From Pseudomonas aeruginosa (lineage in GTDB: Bacteria; Pseudomonadota; Gammaproteobacteria; Pseudomonadales; Pseudomonadaceae), in the NCBI RefSeq assembly GCF_001457615.1, contig NZ_LN831024.1, positions 6,120,001-6,152,000 on the forward strand: 32,000 nucleotides of DNA. The letters are read 5' to 3'. The position numbers and the translations under genes are program-made. The first letter of the stretch is position 1; every line of letters begins with the position of its first letter. Positions 15,328 to 23,932 of the stretch are shown here, in pieces. The notes beneath the pieces are model-generated. The model searched no databases, was not told the origin of the DNA, and saw only the letters and a program-made list of their open reading frames with translations.

Positions 15328-15888
15328 TCAGGCCTTCAGGGTCGAAGTCTTGCGCAAGCGCAGCGCGAGCATGACCAGCAACACGCCGAAGAACACCGCG
15401 TAGGCGCCGATCACCCAGACCACCGCCAGCGCCCCGGCGCCGGGGTTGGCGATCATCAGCACGCCGAACAGCACCGAGATGGCACCAGAGAGGATCATCC
15501 ACCATTCGTTCTGGATCGACTTGCGCAGGCGGATCGCCGCGACGATCTGGAAGATGCCCATCGCCAGCGCCCAGCCGGCGATGATCAGGAGTAGGCCGAT
15601 GGCGGTCAGTTGCGGCCAGAAGAACGCAACCAGGCCGGCCGCCACGCCGATCACCCCGGCCAGCGCCAGCGGCCAGTTGAACTGCCCATCGCTGCGCATG
15701 TTGAACGCGGCGATCAGGGCGAACGCTCCGTCCACCAGCGCGTAGGCGCCCCAGAACAGCACCAGCACGGTCAGCGCCAGGGCCGGCGAGAGCAGGGTCA
15801 GGACGCCGAACACCAGCGCCGCCACGCCGCGCAGGGCCACCAGTTTCCAGTGCTTGCCCAGTTCGGCCCACAGGGGATTGTTTTCCAC
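15328..15888 (-). CDS. HdeD/DUF308-family membrane protein, 186 aa
   Basis: Six hydrophobic helices with the repeated DUF308 pattern (GVLTLLSPALALTVLVLFWGAYALVDGAFALIAAF...). GTG start at 15888 is preceded by GGAGG at 5 nt. Confidence 0.85.
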   Translation of the reverse strand: MENNPLWAELGKHWKLVALRGVAALVFGVLTLLSPALALTVLVLFWGAYALVDGAFALIAAFNMRSDGQFNWPLALAGVIGVAAGLVAFFWPQLTAIGLLLIIAGWALAMGIFQIVAAIRLRKSIQNEWWMILSGAISVLFGVLMIANPGAGALAVVWVIGAYAVFFGVLLVMLALRLRKTSTLKA

Positions 15889-17452: not shown

Positions 17453-17876
17453 CGGTAACTCCTCATGCCGCCCCCGCGCGGGTGGCGGCGGAAAAAGTGG
17501 CTGATACGGTTGCTACGCAAGGTGGCGTTCACAGCCTTCCTCATCCCGGCGCGGCGTCCGGAATCCCGCCCTGCCGATGGACGGGCCCCGCCGTGGCGGG
17601 AATGAAGGTCAGTCGCTCTACACGTCCGGGCTCTACCCTCCCGGGGTTCATGCAAACCCTCGTCTCGGCTGGTCTGGAGTGTGGGCCCGCGCCCGCCGCC
17701 GACCTTATCCATGGGCGACATGACCGCATCCGTTTCCGACGCTCCGGGCCGCGCCCCAGCAGGCAGGTCGCGATAAGCATGTAAATGTCGCTGGCAGGTA
17801 AATGAGCGGCCACGGCGATGCGCACAATCCGCCCCATCAGGCCATCGTTCGGCCCCGTGCGCACGGAGAGATCATC
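17453..17876. promoter_or_regulatory. Divergent gbcA/gbcB control region (424 bp)
   Basis: A long non-coding gap separates divergent genes known to be induced by glycine betaine through GbdR. It contains an inverted repeat TCCCGCC (17564-17570) / GGCGGGA (17595-17601), and GTAAATG occurs twice (17781-17787, 17798-17804). No binding site can be assigned from sequence alone. Confidence 0.5.
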
Positions 17877-18977
17877 ATGTCGAGCAACTTCCTCAATCCG
17901 GTCACCACCCAGACCTGGGCCAACGGCCGGCACCTCGTGCGCTGCGTCAAGGTCATCCAGGAAACCTGGGACGTGCGCACCTTCTGCTTCATGGCCGACC
18001 AGCCGATCCTGTTCTTCTTCAAGCCGGGCCAGTTCGTCACCCTGGAGCTGGAGATCGACGGCGAGCCGGTGATGCGCTCCTACACCATCTCCAGCTCGCC
18101 CTCGGTGCCCTACAGCTTCTCCATCACCATCAAGCGGGTGCCGGGCGGGCGGGTTTCCAACTGGCTGCACGACAACCTCAAGGAAGGCCAGGAGCTACCG
18201 GTGCACGGTCCGGTCGGCCTGTTCAACGCCATCGACTTCCCGGCCGACAAGGTGCTGTTCCTCTCCGGCGGGGTCGGCATCACCCCGGTGATGTCCATGG
18301 CGCGCTGGTTCTTCGACACCAACGCCAACGTCGACATGGTCTTCGTCCACAGCGCCCGTTCGCCGAAGGACATCATCTACCACCGCGAGCTGGAGCACAT
18401 GGCCTCGCGGATCGACAACTTCAGCCTGCACATCATCTGCGAGCGCCACGGCCTCGGCGAAGCCTGGGCCGGCTACCGTGGCTACCTGAACCTGCGCATG
18501 CTGGAACTGATCGCCCCGGACTTCCTCGAGCGGGAAATCTTCTGCTGCGGCCCGACGCCCTATATGAGCGCGGTGAAGCACCTGCTGCAGGGCCACGGCT
18601 ACGACATGAGCCGCTACCACGAGGAAGCCTTCGGGCCGACTCCGCCGGAGGTCCGCGCCGACGTCAGGGAACTGGCCGCGGAAGCCGCCGAGGCGCCGGA
18701 GGTACCGGTCGCCGACCAGCACCAGGTGGAATTCACCGCCACCGGCAAGAGCATCCGCGTCAGCCCCGGGGAAACCGTGCACGCCGCCGCCGCCAAGCTC
18801 GGCCTGCACATTCCGAAGGCCTGCGGGATGGGCATATGCGGCACCTGCAAGGTAATGAAGACCGCCGGCGAGGTGGAGATGGAGCACAACGGCGGGATCA
18901 CCGACGAGGATGTCGCCGAAGGCTACATCCTCTCCTGCTGCAGCGTGCCCAAGGGCGACGTGGTCATCGACTACTGA
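17877..18977 (+). CDS. gbcB: Glycine betaine monooxygenase reductase component (FNR-like FAD/NAD-binding domains + C-terminal plant-type [2Fe-2S] ferredoxin), 366 aa
   Basis: ATG at 17877 follows GGAGAG. RSYTISS is the flavin-binding motif, GGVGITPVMSM the NAD motif, and CGMGICGTCKV...LSCC the 2Fe-2S ligands. The track ORF start at 17802 adds 25 unsupported residues. Confidence 0.9.
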   Translation: MSSNFLNPVTTQTWANGRHLVRCVKVIQETWDVRTFCFMADQPILFFFKPGQFVTLELEIDGEPVMRSYTISSSPSVPYSFSITIKRVPGGRVSNWLHDNLKEGQELPVHGPVGLFNAIDFPADKVLFLSGGVGITPVMSMARWFFDTNANVDMVFVHSARSPKDIIYHRELEHMASRIDNFSLHIICERHGLGEAWAGYRGYLNLRMLELIAPDFLEREIFCCGPTPYMSAVKHLLQGHGYDMSRYHEEAFGPTPPEVRADVRELAAEAAEAPEVPVADQHQVEFTATGKSIRVSPGETVHAAAAKLGLHIPKACGMGICGTCKVMKTAGEVEMEHNGGITDEDVAEGYILSCCSVPKGDVVIDY

Positions 18978-21412
18978 GGGCGCGAGGGAAACGCCAGGCG
19001 CTCCCAGTAGCGCCGCCGCGGCAGTTCCTCGGCCGGCAGCCAGCGTCCGGCGCAGGCCTGCAGCGGCTCGGCGGGAGCCTTCAGCAGCGAGTCCAGGGCC
19101 AGCACGTAGCGCCCCGTCCCCGCGCAGCGGAAACACAGGTCGTCGTCGAAGCTGTCGAAGCACGGGTACTCGCCGAGGTCGTCGCGGTAGCGACGCAACG
19201 TCCGCTCTTGCACGTCGAGCAGCAGCAGGCGCCACTGGTCCCGTTCCAGGTCGCTTTCCTCGTAGCGCTGGACGTGCCGGGTCAGCGCCAGGTAGCGACC
19301 GTCCGCCGACCAGATCATTGGCGCCGCCAGGTTGCCCAAGCCGATGCCCGACGCGGTCAGCAGGTAGCCGTCGCGGCTGAACCCGGCGCGCACGTCCTCG
19401 TCGCGGTGCATGCCCTCGTAGTGGAAACCGAAGCCCCAGGCGGCGTCTTCCGCGCCCACCGACGGCAAGACGAAGTCGCCGTCGCTCCAGGGCCGCGGCG
19501 CTGCGTCCAGCCAGCGCGACGTGGGGCACAGCCGCCAGGCCGTGCCATCGAACGCCACCCGCGCCTGCTCGTAGTAATGCCGCCAGTCGTCGTGGAAGCG
19601 GCCGAATGCGTGCCAGGCGCCGGGCTCGGGCAAGCCTTCGTCGAAGCGGCGCAACAGGCCGGGGTCGCCTTCGCCCGGCCCGCCCGGCGGCTGGTAGGCG
19701 TTGCGGCCGAGCAGGTGGAGCAAATGCACCTGGCCATCGATGAAACCTTGCAGGTGTAGATCGGCCAGCGGCTCGGCGAGCCACTCCAGGCGCCGCTCCC
19801 GGCTATCGAGTATGGCCAGGCGCTGCGGCAGGGTCGGCGCCTCGGCGAAGGCCACCACGGCCAGGTAGCGACCGCAATCGGACACGCGGTGGTCGAGCGT
19901 CCACTCGCCATCCAGGCGCCAGTCGCCCAGGCGCAAGGCATAGGCGCCGCGCTCCGCCTCCTGATCGTCGCGCAACCACTCCCAGACGGCCCGGCTGCCA
20001 TCGGCCAGCGGTGCGCTCTGCAACAGGCATCCCGGCCTGCCGGCCGCGCCATCCAGCGGCAGCAACAGGTCCAGGCGCGGCATGTCGGCCTCGCGCCAGC
20101 GCGGCCGGTCGTCCGCATCGCGAGCGTGCAGAAGGTAGAGGCTGGAATGGCTGTACGAACCCAGCGTGCCGTAGCGTTCGTAGGTCAGGCAGGGTTGCGC
20201 CAGGTCCAGGCCGAAACGCAGCCAGCCATCCTCCAGCCCGAGCAGTTCGGGCCCGCCGGCATGGGGCTCGGCGGGCAACGCCGACCACGGCGCGCCCAGC
20301 GCACGCAGGCCGCCGTCCTCTCGCCAAAGCCAGTAGGTATCCTGCCCCAGCGGCTCGCCTGCTGCCTGCAGCGCCAGCGCCCGGCCGTCATCGTTCCAAG
20401 CCAATGGCGGCGCTTCACGGGACAGGTAGAGGCCGCTGGCCTCGCCGTTTATCCACAGCTCGCCGCGGTTGGCGCGCAGCGGCGCGAAAGGATCGTCCAG
20501 GGCCAGCAGGCTGTCCGGCAGCCAGGGGCGGATTTCCAGCGCGGGCCCGCCAAGCGGGGACGGTAGCGGTTGCGCGCGCAGATCCCCGCTCCAGCGCTGC
20601 CATTCGCTTTCGGGCAGCCAGAGGTCACCGATGGCAACGAAGGCCTCGGCCTCGCTGCCGGCCTTGAGCGCCTGCAGCTCGAGGCGCTGCGGTGCGTTGG
20701 ACGTCAGCGGGCTGTGCCGGCCGATCACCTCGCGCTCGGTGACGCTGTCCAGCTCCCAGAAGTTGTCCACGGCACAGCGGTAAAGCAACCGCTCCTGCCG
20801 GTCGAAGATCGCCAGGCCCCACGCGCCTCGGCTCGGTATCGGCGAAACGAAGTGGCGGCCATCGCTGGAAAAGCGTGCCGAAGGATTGCAGTCGGGGATG
20901 AAGCAACCGTCGGGCATCAGGTAGTGGCATACCAGCGGGCCGCCCATGGCGATCTCGCCGCCGTCGAACAGGCGGATCGGCTCGCCCTCGGGGGTTCGCT
21001 CGGGCGCTTCGCCGCCCCATGCGCTACCTCCGGCCGGCAGGGGTGCGTCCAGCGCTTGCGGAGCCTGGCGCTCCAGGCGCAGGCCGCGCTCGAAGCGGAT
21101 CTGCAACAGCACGCCGCCGATCACCGCCAGCAAGCCACCGCCCAGTCCCAGCCAGAAGCCCGGCAGTGCCTGGCCCAGGGCGATGCCGCCACCCAGAACC
21201 CAGAAGAACAGCGCCTGTTGCAGGCGATACGGCACCTTGCCGCGCCAACGATCCGTGGCCCACTCGGCGCCCAGCAGCAGCACCCAACCCAGCGCTACCA
21301 GCGGCAACGGAAGGAGGACGCCAAGGGCCACCAGCACGGCGATCCAGGCGATCTCGCCGAGGCCTTCGAGCAACAAGCGGCCGAGCGGCTTGTCTGACAT
21401 CCGATCATCCAT
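18971..21412 (-). CDS. Large membrane-anchored hypothetical protein (about four N-terminal TM helices + ~690-aa Trp/Asp/Arg-rich domain with PD40/TolB-like DGR repeats)
   Basis: Continuous 823-codon ORF with high GC3. TM segments include IAWIAVLVALGVLLPLPLVALGWVLLLG and FFWVLGGGIALGQALPGFWLGLGGGLLAVIGGVLL. Recurrent motifs are SSDGRHFVSP, WNDDGRALAL, VSDCGRYLAVV and WSADGRYLALT. The start is uncertain: TTG 21442, ATG 21412 (chosen) or ATG 21400. Confidence 0.72.
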   Translation of the reverse strand: MDDRMSDKPLGRLLLEGLGEIAWIAVLVALGVLLPLPLVALGWVLLLGAEWATDRWRGKVPYRLQQALFFWVLGGGIALGQALPGFWLGLGGGLLAVIGGVLLQIRFERGLRLERQAPQALDAPLPAGGSAWGGEAPERTPEGEPIRLFDGGEIAMGGPLVCHYLMPDGCFIPDCNPSARFSSDGRHFVSPIPSRGAWGLAIFDRQERLLYRCAVDNFWELDSVTEREVIGRHSPLTSNAPQRLELQALKAGSEAEAFVAIGDLWLPESEWQRWSGDLRAQPLPSPLGGPALEIRPWLPDSLLALDDPFAPLRANRGELWINGEASGLYLSREAPPLAWNDDGRALALQAAGEPLGQDTYWLWREDGGLRALGAPWSALPAEPHAGGPELLGLEDGWLRFGLDLAQPCLTYERYGTLGSYSHSSLYLLHARDADDRPRWREADMPRLDLLLPLDGAAGRPGCLLQSAPLADGSRAVWEWLRDDQEAERGAYALRLGDWRLDGEWTLDHRVSDCGRYLAVVAFAEAPTLPQRLAILDSRERRLEWLAEPLADLHLQGFIDGQVHLLHLLGRNAYQPPGGPGEGDPGLLRRFDEGLPEPGAWHAFGRFHDDWRHYYEQARVAFDGTAWRLCPTSRWLDAAPRPWSDGDFVLPSVGAEDAAWGFGFHYEGMHRDEDVRAGFSRDGYLLTASGIGLGNLAAPMIWSADGRYLALTRHVQRYEESDLERDQWRLLLLDVQERTLRRYRDDLGEYPCFDSFDDDLCFRCAGTGRYVLALDSLLKAPAEPLQACAGRWLPAEELPRRRYWERLAFPSRPQ

Positions 21413-21522
21413 GATCCATCCCACTTTCCTGGCAAAAGCCAAGGGTAATCAAGGCTCCGACCAACCACCAGAGCCACGGCGAAGCTGACCTTCTCATACT
21501 GGAAAACACCAGGGCGCCAAGG

Positions 21523-21531
21523 TTGTCCACA
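21523..21531 (+). promoter_or_regulatory. DnaA-box-like 9-mer TTGTCCACA (1 mismatch)
   Basis: Direct read; followed by TTCGGAC, as for the box at 22592. Confidence 0.45.
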
Positions 21532-21596
21532 TTCGGACTGGAATTCCATACAGGTGTTCCTTCGCCGCCTGAATGTCCGCCATGTGTTCACTCAAG

Positions 21597-21640
21597 CATT
21601 TGAAATAAAAGATAAATTCTACAAATTCAAGTGCATTTCA
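21597..21640. other. AT-rich tract (possible DNA-unwinding element)
   Basis: CATTTGAAATAAAAGATAAATTCTACAAATTCAAGTGCATTTCA. 21601-21640 has 9 G/C in 40 nt. It is bracketed by direct repeats GCATTTGA (21596-21603) and GCATTTCA (21633-21640), with an internal AAATTC repeat. Confidence 0.4.
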
Positions 21641-21704
21641 GGGCCGGCTACTCAGCCCGTCCCTGCCTCCGGGAAGCCCTTTCCAGGCTAGGTTGATCAC
21701 AGAC

Positions 21705-21713
21705 TTATCCACA
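21705..21713 (+). promoter_or_regulatory. Perfect DnaA box TTATCCACA
   Basis: Direct read, 65 nt from the AT-rich tract. Confidence 0.6.
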
Positions 21714-21933
21714 AGTTGTGCAATCCATCGCCTCCTCTATGTCCTGCGGGTCCAGAAACAACATACCGACAATGCCTCCTCCGTGGCGCGAGGGCTCCGC
21801 AAGCCCATCCGGCTTTCCTTCCGGGTAAATCGCACTTCGCCGCACGCTCGGCCTGGCCGCACTCTCCTGCTCATTTAACGATCAATCCGCCAGAGACCCC
21901 GCCGTCCGGCCGCCCCAAGCGTGAGCGAACAAT

Positions 21934-21942
21934 TTTTCCACA
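21934..21942 (+). promoter_or_regulatory. DnaA-box-like 9-mer TTTTCCACA (1 mismatch; fits relaxed TTWTNCACA)
   Basis: Direct read; followed by GG. Confidence 0.45.
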
Positions 21943-21976
21943 GGGCTTTACACTCCCCTTGGGGAAAACCAGAAAA

Positions 21977-21985
21977 ATATTCACA
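21977..21985 (+). promoter_or_regulatory. DnaA-box-like 9-mer ATATTCACA (2 mismatches to TTATCCACA, 1 to TTATNCACA)
   Basis: Direct read; followed by GG. Confidence 0.35.
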
Positions 21986-22091
21986 GGATGAAGAAAAAAC
22001 CTGGCCTATTCTGGCTCTTCATCCCTTCCCGCCCGGCCTGACCATTTATTGACCAACTCCATGCAGGCCTTACCTTATAAGGCTTACAGAA

Positions 22092-22100
22092 CTATCCATA
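22092..22100 (+). promoter_or_regulatory. DnaA-box-like 9-mer CTATCCATA (2 mismatches)
   Basis: Direct read, 4 nt upstream of the next box. Confidence 0.3.
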
Positions 22101-22104
22101 CAGG

Positions 22105-22113
22105 TTGTCCACA
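22105..22113 (+). promoter_or_regulatory. DnaA-box-like 9-mer TTGTCCACA (1 mismatch)
   Basis: Direct read; identical to the box at 21523. Confidence 0.45.
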
Positions 22114-22423
22114 AGGCTTTCCAGGCCTTTTGTGAGCAACCCTGCGTTTGTGCACATGCCCCCTAAAGCAAGCCGGCAGCCTGTTGACAGAAAATCCGCT
22201 CAATTCTTGACCAATAGCCTGGAAGGCGCGGGCCCTCTGGCTCCCAGCATTCTATAAACAGGCTCTGCACACTGACCTCAACAGGAATTGGGGGAAATTC
22301 CCGGCGGCGGCCGCAACCGCTGTTCCAGCGCCATCGGAGCGGGAGAATTTTGTCTTTTTCCTCAAGCCGTTACGTCCGCGCAGGGGGTTTGCGGCATTTG
22401 CCCCCACTTCGCTCCTTGCTTTT

Positions 22424-22432
22424 CTATCCACA
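22424..22432 (+). promoter_or_regulatory. DnaA-box-like 9-mer CTATCCACA (1 mismatch)
   Basis: Direct read; followed by GG. Confidence 0.45.
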
Positions 22433-22591
22433 GGCCTGTCTGGGTCCCGCAGGGACAATGCCCGTCACCGTTTCGTCAGCGCTTTTCACCTGAACCTTCA
22501 TCGTCCTTTCACAAACGGCTGTTTTCGCTCAAAAACCGACCAACCTCCGAAGAGCCCGGCAGGGCGCCGCGCGGAAGCGACTGCGAACACG

Positions 22592-22600
22592 TTATTCACA
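22592..22600 (+). promoter_or_regulatory. DnaA-box-like 9-mer TTATTCACA (perfect to TTATNCACA)
   Basis: Direct read; followed by TTCGAC. Confidence 0.5.
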
Positions 22601-22617
22601 TTCGACTCCACAGTGTT

Positions 22618-22626
22618 TGTGGATTG
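22618..22626 (-). promoter_or_regulatory. DnaA-box-like 9-mer, reverse orientation (TGTGGATTG = CAATCCACA, 2 mismatches)
   Basis: Direct read. Confidence 0.3.
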
Positions 22627-22657
22627 GCCAGGTTCTCCTGGCATGGGAGTGGAACCG

Positions 22658-22666
22658 CGTGGATAA
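22658..22666 (-). promoter_or_regulatory. DnaA-box-like 9-mer, reverse orientation (CGTGGATAA = TTATCCACG, 1 mismatch)
   Basis: Direct read. Confidence 0.45.
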
Positions 22667-22749
22667 AGGCTTTCAACACCCCCGGCGGAGATAGGGAGGG
22701 TGTTGCCGGGGGCACTTTTGCATAGCTCCCGAACAGTTAGCCCACAGAG

Positions 22750-22758
22750 TTACCCACA
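22750..22758 (+). promoter_or_regulatory. DnaA-box-like 9-mer TTACCCACA (1 mismatch)
   Basis: Direct read; followed by GG. Confidence 0.45.
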
Positions 22759-22764
22759 GGATTT

Positions 22765-22798
22765 GGGGAAAGAGCGGCCGCCCCGCGCCATGGGGGCG
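22765..22798 (-). terminator. Candidate terminator downstream of ltaA
   Basis: On the minus strand, stem CGCCCC/GGGGCG (22779-22784 / 22793-22798) has an 8-nt loop and is followed by GCCGCTCTTTCC. The T-run is weak. Confidence 0.3.
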
Positions 22799-22811
22799 AC
22801 CGAGAGCGGAC

Positions 22812-23852
22812 TCAGGCGCCCATCACCAGGCGGATGTCCCGCGCCAGTTCGCGGACCCGCTCGATATCGGTATCCCAGGAACACATGAAACGCGCGCCAC
22901 CTTCACCGATGAAGGTGTAGAAGCGCCAGCCGCGCGCGCGCAAGGCTTCGATCGCCGGCTCGGAAAGCTGTAGGAACACGCCGTTGGCTTCTACCGGGAA
23001 CATCAGGCTGACGCCGGGAACGTCGGCCACCAGCTCGGCCAGCAGGCGCGCGCAGCGGTTGGCGTGATCGGCGTAGCGCAGCCAGGCATCGTCCTGCAGT
23101 ACGCCGACCCAGGGCGCGGCGAGGAAGCGCATCTTCGAGGCCAGTTGGCCGGCCTGCTTGCAGCGGTAGTCGAAGTCCTCGGCCAGGTCGCGGTTGAAAA
23201 ACAGGATCGCCTCGCCCACCGCCATGCCGTTCTTGGTGCCGCCGAAGCAGAGCACGTCGACCCCGGCCTTCCAGCTCAGCTCCGCCGGCGAGCAGCCGAG
23301 GAAGGCGCAGGCGTTGGAGAAGCGCGCGCCGTCCATGTGCAGGTGCAGGCCGAGCTCCTTGCAGGTGGCGCTGATCGCCTTCAGCTCGTCCGGGCGGTAC
23401 ACCGTGCCGACCTCGGTGGCCTGGGTGAGAGTCACCACGCGCGGCTTCGGATAGTGGATATCCTGGCGCTTGAGAGCGATGTCGCGGATCGACGCCGGGG
23501 TCAGCTTGCCGACCTCGGTCTGCGCCAGCAGCAGCTTGGAGCCATTGGAGAAGAACTCCGGCGCGCCGCACTCGTCGGTCTCGACGTGGGCGGTCTCCGA
23601 GCAGATCACGCTGTGGTAGCTCTGGCACAGCGCAGCCAGGGCCAGGGAGTTGGCGGCGGTGCCGTTGAAGGCGAAGAACACTTCGCAATCGGTCTCGAAC
23701 AACTGGCGGAAGTAGTCCGAAGCACGCGCGGTCCACTGGTCGTCGCCATAGGCGCGTTCGTGGCCGCGGTTGGCTTCGGCCATCGCCGCCCAGGCTTCGG
23801 GGCAGATGCCGGAATAGTTGTCGCTGGCGAACTGTTGGGTGTGATCGGTCAT
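22812..23852 (-). CDS. ltaA: Low-specificity L-threonine aldolase (PLP-dependent), 346 aa
   Basis: MTDHTQQFASDNYSGICPEAWAAMAEAN...FNGTAANSLALA...HMDGARF...CFGGTKNG are conserved threonine aldolase blocks, including the PLP lysine in GGTKNG. ATG at 23852 has GAGG 5 nt upstream. The track start at 23894 adds 14 residues. Confidence 0.9.
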   Translation of the reverse strand: MTDHTQQFASDNYSGICPEAWAAMAEANRGHERAYGDDQWTARASDYFRQLFETDCEVFFAFNGTAANSLALAALCQSYHSVICSETAHVETDECGAPEFFSNGSKLLLAQTEVGKLTPASIRDIALKRQDIHYPKPRVVTLTQATEVGTVYRPDELKAISATCKELGLHLHMDGARFSNACAFLGCSPAELSWKAGVDVLCFGGTKNGMAVGEAILFFNRDLAEDFDYRCKQAGQLASKMRFLAAPWVGVLQDDAWLRYADHANRCARLLAELVADVPGVSLMFPVEANGVFLQLSEPAIEALRARGWRFYTFIGEGGARFMCSWDTDIERVRELARDIRLVMGA

Positions 23853-23932
23853 GTGGGCCTCTGGAACGGTTGCCGAGCCCTTGTGGGGCTCCATGCGGTC
23901 GTGCCGGCACGGGTACGTGCCGGCACAGTCTG

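Follow-up and report, generated by a model that had tools for sequence, protein, structure and literature searches.

The systems closest to the locus analysed here are DARS1, DARS2 and datA of Escherichia coli. A DARS makes ADP-DnaA release its ADP and, in vivo, stimulates initiation. The core of a DARS consists of three DnaA boxes, with boxes I and II opposed across a 5-bp spacer and box III co-oriented with box II at a 3-bp spacer (PMC6868365). In DARS1, located in the bioD-uvrB intergenic region, this core reads TTATCCACT-5-TGTGGATAA-3-TGTGTATTA. In DARS2, a mid-replichore locus at ygpD/rppH-mutH, it reads TTATTCACC-5-TGTGGATAG-3-TGTGAAGAA, with a middle box that equals the consensus. Fis is required for the activity of DARS2, and its consensus is quoted as G-N2-Y-R-W5-Y-R-N2-C (PMC4245941). 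datA, ~1 kb of non-coding DNA close to oriC with clustered high-affinity boxes, is non-essential; it modulates initiation, stimulating hydrolysis of DnaA-bound ATP and repressing untimely rounds. Its essential boxes (7, 2 and 3) are co-oriented around a single IHF site (IBS, in the order 7, 2, IBS, 3; PMC5742627). According to PMC13438810 and PMC5742627, intergenic box clusters of Bacillus subtilis (six clusters) and Streptomyces coelicolor, mostly near the origin, restrain initiation. As in the locus described below, these clusters comprise intergenic consensus DnaA boxes outside oriC. We know of no periodic unit, DARS-type trio or Fis-like partner site described for them, and both B. subtilis and S. 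coelicolor lack Fis. To our knowledge, datA and DARS are regarded as enterobacterial, only the origins have been studied in Pseudomonas, and very little is known about ATP-/ADP-DnaA cycling beyond E. coli and its close relatives.

Here, we analysed a 32-kb stretch of P. aeruginosa DNA (the window, to which all coordinates refer unless stated otherwise). A preliminary description of its sequence had noted that the intergenic region (IGR) between PA5412 and ltaA has the architecture of a replication origin, a datA or a DARS, and had concluded that it would be a secondary DnaA-binding locus. The comparative evidence below supports this conclusion and gives no support to an origin. We consider it quite probable, judging from sequence comparison, that the IGR binds DnaA as a conserved and functional locus other than an origin. 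The best reading is that of a DnaA-regulating locus built of DARS-type cores, which would act through either reactivation of DnaA, as DARS does, or its sequestration or inactivation, as datA does. We found no description of the array in the literature, and a search aimed at the PA5412-ltaA locus agreed with the earlier statement that no function had been described for it.

Anatomy of the PA5412-ltaA intergenic region

The IGR (21413/21443-22811, ~1.37 kb) is non-coding and is adjoined by gbcB, PA5412 and ltaA. Its initial characterization as a gene-free island of ~56% GC was borne out. The GC content of 21443-22811 is 0.562, compared to 0.706 in the 823-codon ORF, 0.667 in ltaA and 0.672 in the whole window. 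The codon-position GC signal, with a GC3 of 0.8-0.9 in both flanking genes, ends at ~21400, is absent from every frame of the gap and restarts at ~22850, and the three longest ORFs of the gap had no match in Pfam. In close relatives, the syntenic gap is occupied by ybjQ and an EF-G paralogue. A decayed gene was nevertheless rejected as the source of the unusual composition, as tblastn with these two proteins against the window returned nothing below E=0.6 and no GC3 phase was left.

Every coordinate and strand of the 11 DnaA boxes listed earlier was confirmed, and three further boxes with two mismatches were found at 21960(-), 22148(+) and 22356(+). Eight boxes have at most one mismatch, as had been claimed (21523, 21705, which is perfect, 21934, 22105, 22424, 22592, 22658(-) and 22750). 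Their enrichment also withstood comparison with composition-matched shuffles: dinucleotide-preserving shuffles of the IGR contained 0.18 such boxes on average and 2 at most, and eight were reached in 0 of 2000. The whole window holds 11 boxes of this quality against 1.41 expected, 8 of which fall inside the IGR. Seven of the eight are on the + strand, as are 11 of the 14 with up to two mismatches. The motif TTWTNCACA is represented by 129 boxes in the whole genome of PAO1161 (PMC13438810), and 3 of these map to the IGR. The P. aeruginosa array has one perfect box only, and several of its boxes (TTGTCCACA, CTATCCACA, TTACCCACA) lie outside TTWTNCACA.

The boxes are periodic rather than scattered. 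Counting a degenerate box at 22263, their spacings are 182, 229, 171, 158, 161, 168 and 158 bp, that is ~160-230 bp overall. The IGR thus consists of about eight modules of ~170 bp in tandem, which have diverged from one another and are each arranged around a predicted DnaA box. A complete unit consists of a Fis-consensus-like palindrome, followed ~50 bp downstream by three DnaA-box-like 9-mers in the order box, 3 bp, same-orientation box, 5 bp, inverted box. In a position matrix of 140 units, the strong box occupies columns 72-80 and is followed by 3 bp, nnnYCMACA, 5 bp and TGKGGRYAA. This combination of spacers (3,5) was the optimum among all trio spacings tested. Trio matches numbered 117 in the 22 kb of units (144 units), compared to 3 in 1.58 Mb elsewhere, and all four matches in the window lie within the IGR. 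The outer box (position III) departs from the consensus by 0.43 mismatches on average, the middle box (II) by 3.96 and the inverted box (I) by 2.32; the inverted box ranks among the best-conserved columns of the unit matrix. The best box is in the middle in the trio at 22738-22772 and in two modules of a divergent P. aeruginosa lineage (L089), both with mismatches (3,0,3).

In the palindrome, G7 and C21 are invariant, 14 bp apart, and enclose Y-R/W5/Y-R symmetry. By sequence match, GNNYRNNNNNYRNNC describes 128 of 134 units and the stricter GnnYAnnnnnTRnnC describes 62; the loose Fis pattern is frequent, with 80 matches in the window. Consensus scans for IHF sites (WATCAANNNNTTR or TAANNNNTTGATW) gave no match inside modules. 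The sole matches, with one mismatch each, were two overlapping ones at 21590-21605 and one overlapping the box at 21706.

Five units of the window were recognised by the unit profile; each lies on the + strand within the IGR. Closest to the PA5412 start, module 1 (21523-21531, +) comprises the one-mismatch box TTGTCCACA, which is the same in L089 despite lying in a patch of only ~77% identity. Between modules 1 and 2 lies an AT-rich tract of ~40 bp (21591-21632), the site of the two overlapping IHF matches, which is mostly kept in L089 inside the divergent patch and may be part of the PA5412 promoter. Module 2 (21693-21713, +) reads TTGATCACA gac TTATCCACA, with the perfect box at 21705-21713 and a three-mismatch box 3 bp before it. 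L089 shares the island 21689-21713 without any change; in that lineage the flanks on both sides differ and the module is one of the two full (3,0,3) trios. Module 3 (21865-21976, +; nhmmer score 46) has a Fis-consensus-like palindrome at 21869-21883 (GCTCATTTAACGATC) and a trio at 21934-21968 (TTTTCCACA ggg CTTTACACT cccct TGGGGAAAA). In module 4 (22036-22146, +; score 54), the palindrome at 22040-22054 (GACCATTTATTGACC) matches the Fis consensus exactly and the trio at 22105-22139 reads TTGTCCACA agg CTTTCCAGG ccttt TGTGAGCAA.

Module 5 (22193-22301, +; score 51) keeps a Fis-like palindrome (22198-22212); its box is decayed and its trio degenerate (22263-22297, CTCTGCACA ctg ACCTCAACA ggaat TGGGGGAAA). 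Module 6 is represented by the one-mismatch box CTATCCACA (22424-22432, +), the remainder of the unit being too decayed for the profile. This box still fits the period, 161 bp past 22263 and 168 bp ahead of 22592. Module 7 (22519-22638, +; score 44) combines a Fis-like palindrome (22527-22541, GCTCAAAAACCGACC) with the best trio of the window (22592-22626, TTATTCACA ttc GACTCCACA gtgtt TGTGGATTG; mismatches (1,3,2)). An isolated inverted box with one mismatch, TTATCCACG on the minus strand, follows at 22658-22666. Finally, the partial unit of module 8 (22727-22772, +) carries the trio TAGCCCACA gag TTACCCACA ggatt TGGGGAAAG at 22738-22772. Its middle box is the strongest of the three, as in E. 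coli DARS, and a C-to-T change at 22753 turns this box into a perfect TTATCCACA in L089.

Unrelated genomes, spanning 32-70% GC, also showed trio geometry with near-perfect boxes, one example being the region upstream of priA.

Conservation across Pseudomonas

Comparison of the orthologous regions across strains and pseudomonads, one of the checks proposed at the outset, revealed that the box array is conserved. A genome scan anchored on ltaA gave ~40 Pseudomonas loci with box densities of 4-10 per kb, compared to 0.33 per kb in the background, and the unit profile identified 144 units in 37 loci near ltaA/gbcAB. In many species, the box cluster keeps its chromosomal neighbourhood and the surrounding sequence is unalignable by blastn. 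In most species the invariant core is identical to the universal DnaA box TTATCCACA, which each array carries in 4-5 perfect copies. Four units are present in the P. fluorescens group; across 17 of its species, with a mean IGR identity of 59%, their TTATCCACA boxes do not vary and form the best-conserved columns of the IGR. The boxes are likewise the best-conserved positions in 5 relatives of the aeruginosa group. Between two lineages of P. aeruginosa, they persist unaltered within the patch of only ~77% identity. As the array is conserved genus-wide in Pseudomonas, it is a strong, undescribed candidate for the control of DnaA activity away from the origin.

The genes around the array vary between lineages. 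In other species it lies beside ybjQ and an EF-G paralogue or beside pilin-like genes, in some it is interrupted by inserted genes, and in some no array was found within 10 kb of ltaA. A single-module locus beside a histone-deacetylase-family gene was observed on metagenomic Pseudomonas-like contigs. It was not found at this gene in Ectopseudomonas khazarica or Azotobacter salinestris, and the matches listed for the gene included no P. aeruginosa orthologue.

The same comparison bears on whether the motifs might serve a factor other than DnaA, for instance one of the nucleoid or of segregation acting on TCCACAG-type repeats plus the palindrome, or might be a tandem repeat maintained neutrally. 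The conserved core is longer than a 9-mer, with CGAACA ahead of it and G behind, many aeruginosa-group boxes depart from TTWTNCACA, and inserted genes interrupt the array in some species. However, the core itself is the universal DnaA box in most species, the three sites are arranged as in a DnaA complex that has been defined by experiment, and invariance of the boxes at 59% background identity is incompatible with neutral decay. We therefore regard such an explanation as improbable.

Alternatively, the boxes might provide DnaA-dependent transcriptional control of their neighbours (PA5412 and, elsewhere, ybjQ, the EF-G paralogue or the pilin-like genes). DnaA regulates the gidA promoter of P. 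aeruginosa via a box cluster (PMC13438810), and the divergent promoter region between ybjQ and the EF-G paralogue is taken up by the array in two relatives (L001 and L002). Yet the array stays when its neighbours change, eight periodic modules over 1.2 kb far exceed the needs of a promoter, and no sigma-70 promoter consensus was present in the two arrays scanned. DnaA-dependent control of the neighbours' transcription hence appears distinctly unlikely.

Tandem units in which an AT-rich element precedes inverted repeats could, in addition, be small RNA genes in series or a long structured RNA, and strong hairpins are possible in some units (22103-22141, -18 kcal/mol). A structured RNA had been named, next to a decayed gene, as a possible cause of the composition, and neither was found. 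Rfam searches of the window and four other arrays gave no match at gathering and relaxed thresholds, terminator-like matches were absent inside the two arrays scanned (a single one in L039, at 15532-15549 of that locus, lies just beyond the array), and RNAalifold returned no consensus structure for 140 units. Folding z-scores of -0.8 and -1.4 hardly went beyond the -0.6 of a control segment; the value of -1.4 is accounted for by the inverted boxes. A palindrome-box hairpin with apparent covariation was rejected as well (z -0.81 vs control -0.59). Together with the negative promoter scan, these results led us to reject an RNA element, which we hold to be very improbable.

Relation to replication origins

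The island had been noted as lying far from any dnaA gene, and this proved correct. tblastn detected no DnaA homologue in the window. Mapping of published primers equates window position 22279/22280 with PAO1 coordinate 6,091,513, which places the array ~173 kb from dnaA/oriC in PAO1, a genome whose length we take to be 6.26 Mb. In relatives (three complete genomes), the array is ~180-240 kb from the end of the record. With regard to orientation relative to replication, GC skew of the 20-kb flanks gave a mixed picture, being negative in 25 cases and positive in 11.

We compared the array with the oriC1/oriC2 locus of the same strain in P. khorasanensis SWRI153. The density of consensus boxes is comparable, with 5-6 per ~600 bp in oriC1/oriC2 and 7 per 565 bp in the array. 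However, oriC1 (rpmH-dnaA) and oriC2 (upstream of gidA) are autonomously replicating and adjoin dnaA and gidA, and their GC content is lower (0.45-0.49 vs 0.56 in the array). Moreover, neither the unit profile nor the trio scan had a match in the SWRI153 oriC1/oriC2 locus, and the array was rejected as a copy of oriC on this basis. A plasmid or mobile origin was also rejected, since blastn of the IGR and of a fluorescens-type array found no match in 72,556 plasmids.

The box density on par with oriC1 and oriC2, a GC content below that of the flanks and the AT-rich tract at 21591-21632 are the features that could suggest a third origin, or a sequence that replicates autonomously. Against this, the tract, the sole strongly AT-rich one of the IGR, lies outside the conserved unit, linkage to dnaA, rpmH or gidA is absent, and bioRxiv 10.1101/2025.08.05.668638 reports that screens for autonomously replicating fragments of P. 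aeruginosa yielded oriC1 and oriC2 only. With the negative profile and plasmid searches, a third origin is highly unlikely.

Comparison with DARS and datA

The trio of the Pseudomonas array has the 9-5-9-3-9 layout of DARS1 and DARS2 with identical orientations. When the unit profile was run against DARS1, DARS2 and datA, the best match was the DARS1 core, in register, at E 0.0018; in both the array unit and DARS1, AACT follows the inverted box. DARS2 resembles the array in being non-coding chromosomal DNA with Fis-consensus sites, a likeness that rests on sequence match, and no homology to it beyond the core was detected with the unit profile. The single-core DARS1 differs from the array in having no defined Fis or IHF requirement and in the relative strengths of its boxes. 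DARS2, also with one core, contrasts with the 4-8 tandem modules of the arrays and needs IHF sites, whereas the array has no IHF consensus between core and Fis-like site. It is mid-replichore, the array origin-proximal.

That DnaA and Fis bind the array, and in which direction this would shift initiation, we infer from these comparisons. DnaA would nucleate at the strong box of a module and spread cooperatively to the two weaker sites, where it might form a head-to-tail plus head-to-head trimer as E. coli DnaA does on DARS cores. Such a trimer would alter the cellular DnaA pool, most likely through release of ADP and rebinding of ATP, i.e., DARS-type reactivation, with Fis or another palindrome binder as a possible growth-phase gate. 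Each module would also hold several DnaA molecules near oriC.

Reactivation by a DARS-type mechanism is a tentative proposal that we rate at somewhat below even chances. The middle box, the counterpart of box II, which in DARS is an essential consensus box and nucleation site, is weak in most units (3.96/9 mismatches), so that boxes I and II are not both near consensus and the head-to-head pair would consist of two imperfect sites; in the array it is the outer box that is strong. The multiplicity of cores and the lack of IHF consensus likewise speak against it, as do the single perfect box of the P. aeruginosa array and the species with no array near ltaA, and a distance of ~173 kb from oriC is closer to the situation of datA than to that of DARS1 or DARS2.

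This position is among the points that fit a datA-like sink or inactivator, by which the array would lower free or ATP-bound DnaA, through titration or ATP hydrolysis, and prevent re-initiation. Because the array is replicated minutes after initiation, DnaA would be lowered at that time. Strong boxes (their affinity being predicted) are clustered over ~1.2 kb of non-coding DNA, similar to the original 1-kb datA; the head-to-tail order of boxes 0, A and B in each module, separated by 2-3 bp, would suit ATP-DnaA oligomers; and the analogous clusters of B. subtilis and Streptomyces repress initiation, according to PMC5742627. However, the co-oriented essential boxes of datA need an IHF site between them (PMC5742627), and in the modules an inverted box is conserved and matches to the IHF consensus are absent. 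E. coli datA, in turn, lacks both trio geometry and repeat-unit structure: no trio match was found in it, and its matches to the unit profile were confined to single boxes. We consider a datA-like function rather unlikely.

Returning to reactivation, its fullest form would be an origin-near, Fis-gated tandem battery of DARS cores that sets the balance of ATP- and ADP-DnaA, with the trio as a widespread bacterial DnaA-remodelling element. We hold this doubtful; if true, DARS-like control would be general and no enterobacterial speciality. The array in any case offers a concrete, easily deletable target for the study of replication timing in a pathogen and a large environmental genus, and allows one to ask if regulation through the head-to-head DnaA complex is general.

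The PA5412-PA5413 gap has served one laboratory as a 'neutral' site for cassette integration, at PAO1 6091513, and the resulting strains are used as wild-type-like backgrounds (PMC5521831). Primer mapping locates the integration point at 22279|22280, inside module 5. The use of strains with an insertion in mid-array as such backgrounds indicates that the intact array is dispensable for viability, as datA and DARS are in E. coli. As the insertion splits the array, such strains may not be neutral for replication control. The same site has also been used in studies of chromosome segregation proteins.

A gene-free gap holding an ordered series of DnaA boxes

The intergenic region between the 823-codon PA5412 ORF (18971-21442, minus strand, GC3 0.8-0.9) and the ltaA-type aldolase gene (22812-23894, minus strand) has a GC content of 0.562, compared to 0.67-0.71 in its flanks, and the codon-phase GC signal vanishes between the two genes. 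With up to one mismatch to the DnaA box TTATCCACA, we found 8 boxes in this region, while 0.18 were expected from 2000 dinucleotide-preserving shuffles (0/2000 reached 8). The entire 32-kb window contains 11 such boxes, 8 of which fall inside the gap. The preliminary description had portrayed a box-rich, low-GC and gene-free gap far from any dnaA gene. The enrichment over shuffles, the GC content and the missing codon-phase signal bear this out; all 11 boxes that it listed were recovered in the gap, and no DnaA homologue is encoded within the window.

The boxes form an ordered series rather than a scatter. On the plus strand they start at 21523, 21705, 21934, 22105, 22263 (decayed), 22424, 22592 and 22750, with 158-229 bp between successive starts. 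Several are embedded in the same surroundings, with CGAACA on the 5' side, a G directly 3', CACAG roughly 12 nt downstream of the box, and TTGTGG or TTGGGG beyond that. Three of the 129 TTWTNCACA boxes reported for the whole PAO1161 genome (2026 paper, PMC13438810) lie inside this 1.37-kb region. A further perfect TTATCCACA is located within the PA5412 coding sequence at 20449.

Next to PA5412 lies gbcB (17802-18977, NCBIfam equivalog). The PA5412 product itself contains no Pfam or NCBIfam domain, and homologues of this 823-aa protein are confined to relatives of P. aeruginosa. NCBI records call the protein (813-823 aa) a 'ferredoxin', and in a divergent P. aeruginosa lineage (L089) it is divided between a 536-aa and a 255-aa ORF. 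Between the first two modules of the array, counted from the PA5412 side, and outside the conserved unit, there is an AT-rich tract of about 40 bp (21591-21632) with two overlapping matches to the IHF consensus, each with one mismatch (21590-21605). The tract could be a promoter/UP region of PA5412 or a bending site.

Conservation of the array within Pseudomonas

We scanned 80 loci anchored on ltaA, one genome per species. Against a background of 0.33 boxes per kb in these loci, about 40 Pseudomonas loci had a 1-kb stretch with 4-10 boxes, many of which were perfect, at a distance of 0.1-9 kb from ltaA. No such clusters were observed in the non-Pseudomonas loci of the scan. A profile HMM of the repeat unit retrieved 144 copies in 37 loci. 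Genomes of the P. fluorescens group always carry four tandem units downstream of gbcA, putida-like genomes two or three, and the aeruginosa group four to ten, sometimes interrupted by inserted genes. All five matches in the 32-kb window lie in the gap on the plus strand (21865-21976, 22036-22146, 22193-22301, 22519-22638 and a partial one at 22727-22771). In some species, about 2.5 kb beyond gbcA is devoid of high-GC3 ORFs (L048 16565-19115, L034 18482-19059), and such regions hold 4-6 further boxes, grouped about 1.3 kb past the four-unit array.

Alignment of the orthologous region across species had been proposed in the preliminary description, and the boxes were indeed kept, both in 17 fluorescens-group species and in five relatives from the aeruginosa group. 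In the former, the four TTATCCACA boxes were invariant in 17/17 species across a whole-region alignment with a mean pairwise identity of 59%, and the runner-up columns directly flank the boxes. The five aeruginosa-group relatives (73-86% identity) showed the same pattern. The L089 lineage is 99.8% identical to the window over 21910-22750 and about 77% identical over 21460-21910. The two boxes within this divergent patch, 21523 and 21705, are unchanged, with substitutions setting in immediately beyond them. L089 also has a T in place of C at 22753, which converts TTACCCACA into the perfect consensus. The patch spans about 450 bp (L089 3600-4000) between flanking genes that are 96-100% identical, and still has both boxes and the AT-rich tract; judging from these alignments, this segment seems to have been replaced or to have undergone recombination.

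Two additional genes, ybjQ and one for an EF-G paralogue, separate ltaA from the PA5412 homologue in Pseudomonas sp. W03, P. nicosulfuronedens and Pseudomonas sp. SCB32. Almost nothing aligned by blastn between their intergenic pieces and the gap in the window, but these pieces contain DnaA-box clusters too, in an orientation to the flanking genes identical to that in the window. We considered that the gap might be a remnant of the ybjQ/EF-G pair; neither gene leaves a trace in the window. Copies of ybjQ plus a 682-aa EF-G paralogue sit between array modules in L001 (2330-5623), L002 (2379-5666) and L090 (3314-6606), and also in L022 and L038, and in L005 the units occupy four separate sites within 7 kb. 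Genes inserted between units seem to be tolerated by the array, or drawn to it.

A decayed gene or a structured RNA had initially been named as alternatives. Neither was found: traces of ybjQ and EF-G are absent, no Rfam family was detected in the window or in four other arrays, and the units share no consensus RNA fold, with weak folding z-scores. Two arrays scanned for a sigma-70 promoter consensus had none, and a single terminator-like match, in the L039 scan, lay just beyond the array. Among 72,556 plasmids, no match to the array was found.

Anatomy of the unit and comparison with DARS, datA and the origins

Two parts of the unit stood out as conserved in the position matrix of 140 units. 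One, a 15-bp palindrome with the pattern G-N-T-Y-R-W5-Y-R-A-N-C, has its outer G in 134/134 units and its outer C in 137/137. At the sequence level, it agrees with the Fis consensus given in PMC4245941, GnnYAnnnnnTRnnC. The pattern GNNYRNNNNNYRNNC is fitted by 128/134 units, although this loose pattern is common, with 80 matches in the window. The Fis-like palindromes of the array are located at 21869, 22040 (exact), 22198 and 22527. About 50 bp downstream follows the second part, a trio comprising a strong box TTATCCACA, 3 bp, a weak co-oriented box nnnYCMACA, 5 bp and an inverted box TGKGGRYAA. An IHF consensus was not present inside the modules.

At a threshold of ≤8/27 mismatches, the trio matched 117 times in 22 kb of units versus 3 times in the remaining 1.58 Mb of fetched sequence, and the (3,5) spacing was the best among all spacer combinations tried. 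The matches in the window (21934, 22105, 22592 and 22738) are all in the gap and all on the plus strand. Per Pseudomonas unit, mean mismatches were 0.43 for the outer box (position III), 3.96 for the middle box and 2.32 for the inverted box; the middle box is strongest only in exceptions (window 22738-22772 and two L089 modules). The three-site geometry is under selection.

The same geometry occurs in E. coli. Read directly, the DARS1 core is TTATCCACT-5-TGTGGATAA-3-TGTGTATTA and the DARS2 core TTATTCACC-5-TGTGGATAG-3-TGTGAAGAA, consistent with the description of DARS boxes I and II as opposed and 5 bp apart (PMC6868365). The 9-5-9-3-9 layout and the box orientations are identical to those of the Pseudomonas unit. 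When the unit profile was compared with DARS1, DARS2 and datA, its top match was the DARS1 core, in register (E 0.0018), and DARS2 also aligned in register; datA had no trio match. The main difference from the E. coli DARS is that in Pseudomonas the outer box (III) is consensus and the middle box is weak.

P. aeruginosa has two known origins, oriC1 (rpmH-dnaA) and oriC2 (upstream of gidA). We ranked the array against both in one strain, P. khorasanensis SWRI153, where it has 7 boxes (4 perfect) in 565 bp, compared to 5 (4 perfect) in the 622-bp rpmH-dnaA region of oriC1 and 6 (1 perfect) in the 552-bp gidA-mnmE region of oriC2. The 21.5-kb oriC1/oriC2 locus contained no trio match. This parB-gyrB segment (L091 1-21524) holds 39 boxes with ≤1 mismatch, i.e., 1.8 per kb with coding sequence included, versus 0.33 per kb in the ltaA loci.

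Taken together, the array is probably a conserved, functional, non-origin DnaA-binding locus. From these patterns we infer DnaA binding, Fis binding and whether initiation would be promoted or restrained. Because the selected three-site geometry is identical to that of an experimentally defined DnaA complex and is joined by a Fis-like partner site, we tentatively favor a DARS-type nucleotide-exchange module as the likeliest mechanism. Less likely, but still a serious rival, is a datA-like sink or inactivator, since the array lies near the origin, its strong boxes are many, the middle box is weak and the modules lack an IHF site.

Trios in other genomes and a cassette site within the array

When metagenomes were scanned with the core pattern, more than 120 loci were obtained, which form three groups. 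The first comprises further gbcA-linked arrays. The second consists of single complete modules on Pseudomonas-like contigs, between histone-deacetylase-family and HI0933-like flavoprotein genes. These modules (L151 2184-2290, L169, L115, L126, L096 and about 10 other metagenome loci; contig GC 0.60-0.63) are made up of the palindrome and TTATCCACA ggc CGTTCCACA ggcat TGTGGGTAA; the equivalent gaps of Ectopseudomonas khazarica (L212) and Azotobacter salinestris (L213) have none. The third group comes from unrelated genomes (GC 32-70%), in which three near-perfect boxes are arranged in trio geometry; one such trio, TTATCCACA gaa TTATCCACA gaatc TGTGGATAA, lies upstream of a priA-like gene. Given the occurrence of this geometry in metagenome loci including such unrelated genomes, the scan suggests that the trio may be a widespread DnaA-binding device. 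Intergenic 9-3-9-5-9 trios of near-perfect boxes in unrelated genomes were seen in L125 (5211-5245), L143 (5105-5139), L154 (8055-8089), L107, L150, L099 and L114; judged by eye, the adjoining gene resembles priA in L125 and L143, and mfd in L154.

In the literature searched (DnaA boxes, titration, datA/DARS, PA5412/PA5413), we found no description of the PA5412-PA5413 box cluster. The gap has been used as a chromosomal integration site at PAO1 6,091,513 (PMC5521831), where araBADp and lacZ cassettes have been placed in PAO1161 as at a 'neutral' site. Mapping with the published primers puts the cassette junction at 22279|22280, which places the gap at about 6,090,650-6,092,050 in PAO1 coordinates. 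This junction is within the decayed trio of module 5 (22263-22297), and the cassettes therefore cut the DnaA-box array in two. As such cassettes are in use, a split array is compatible with viability.
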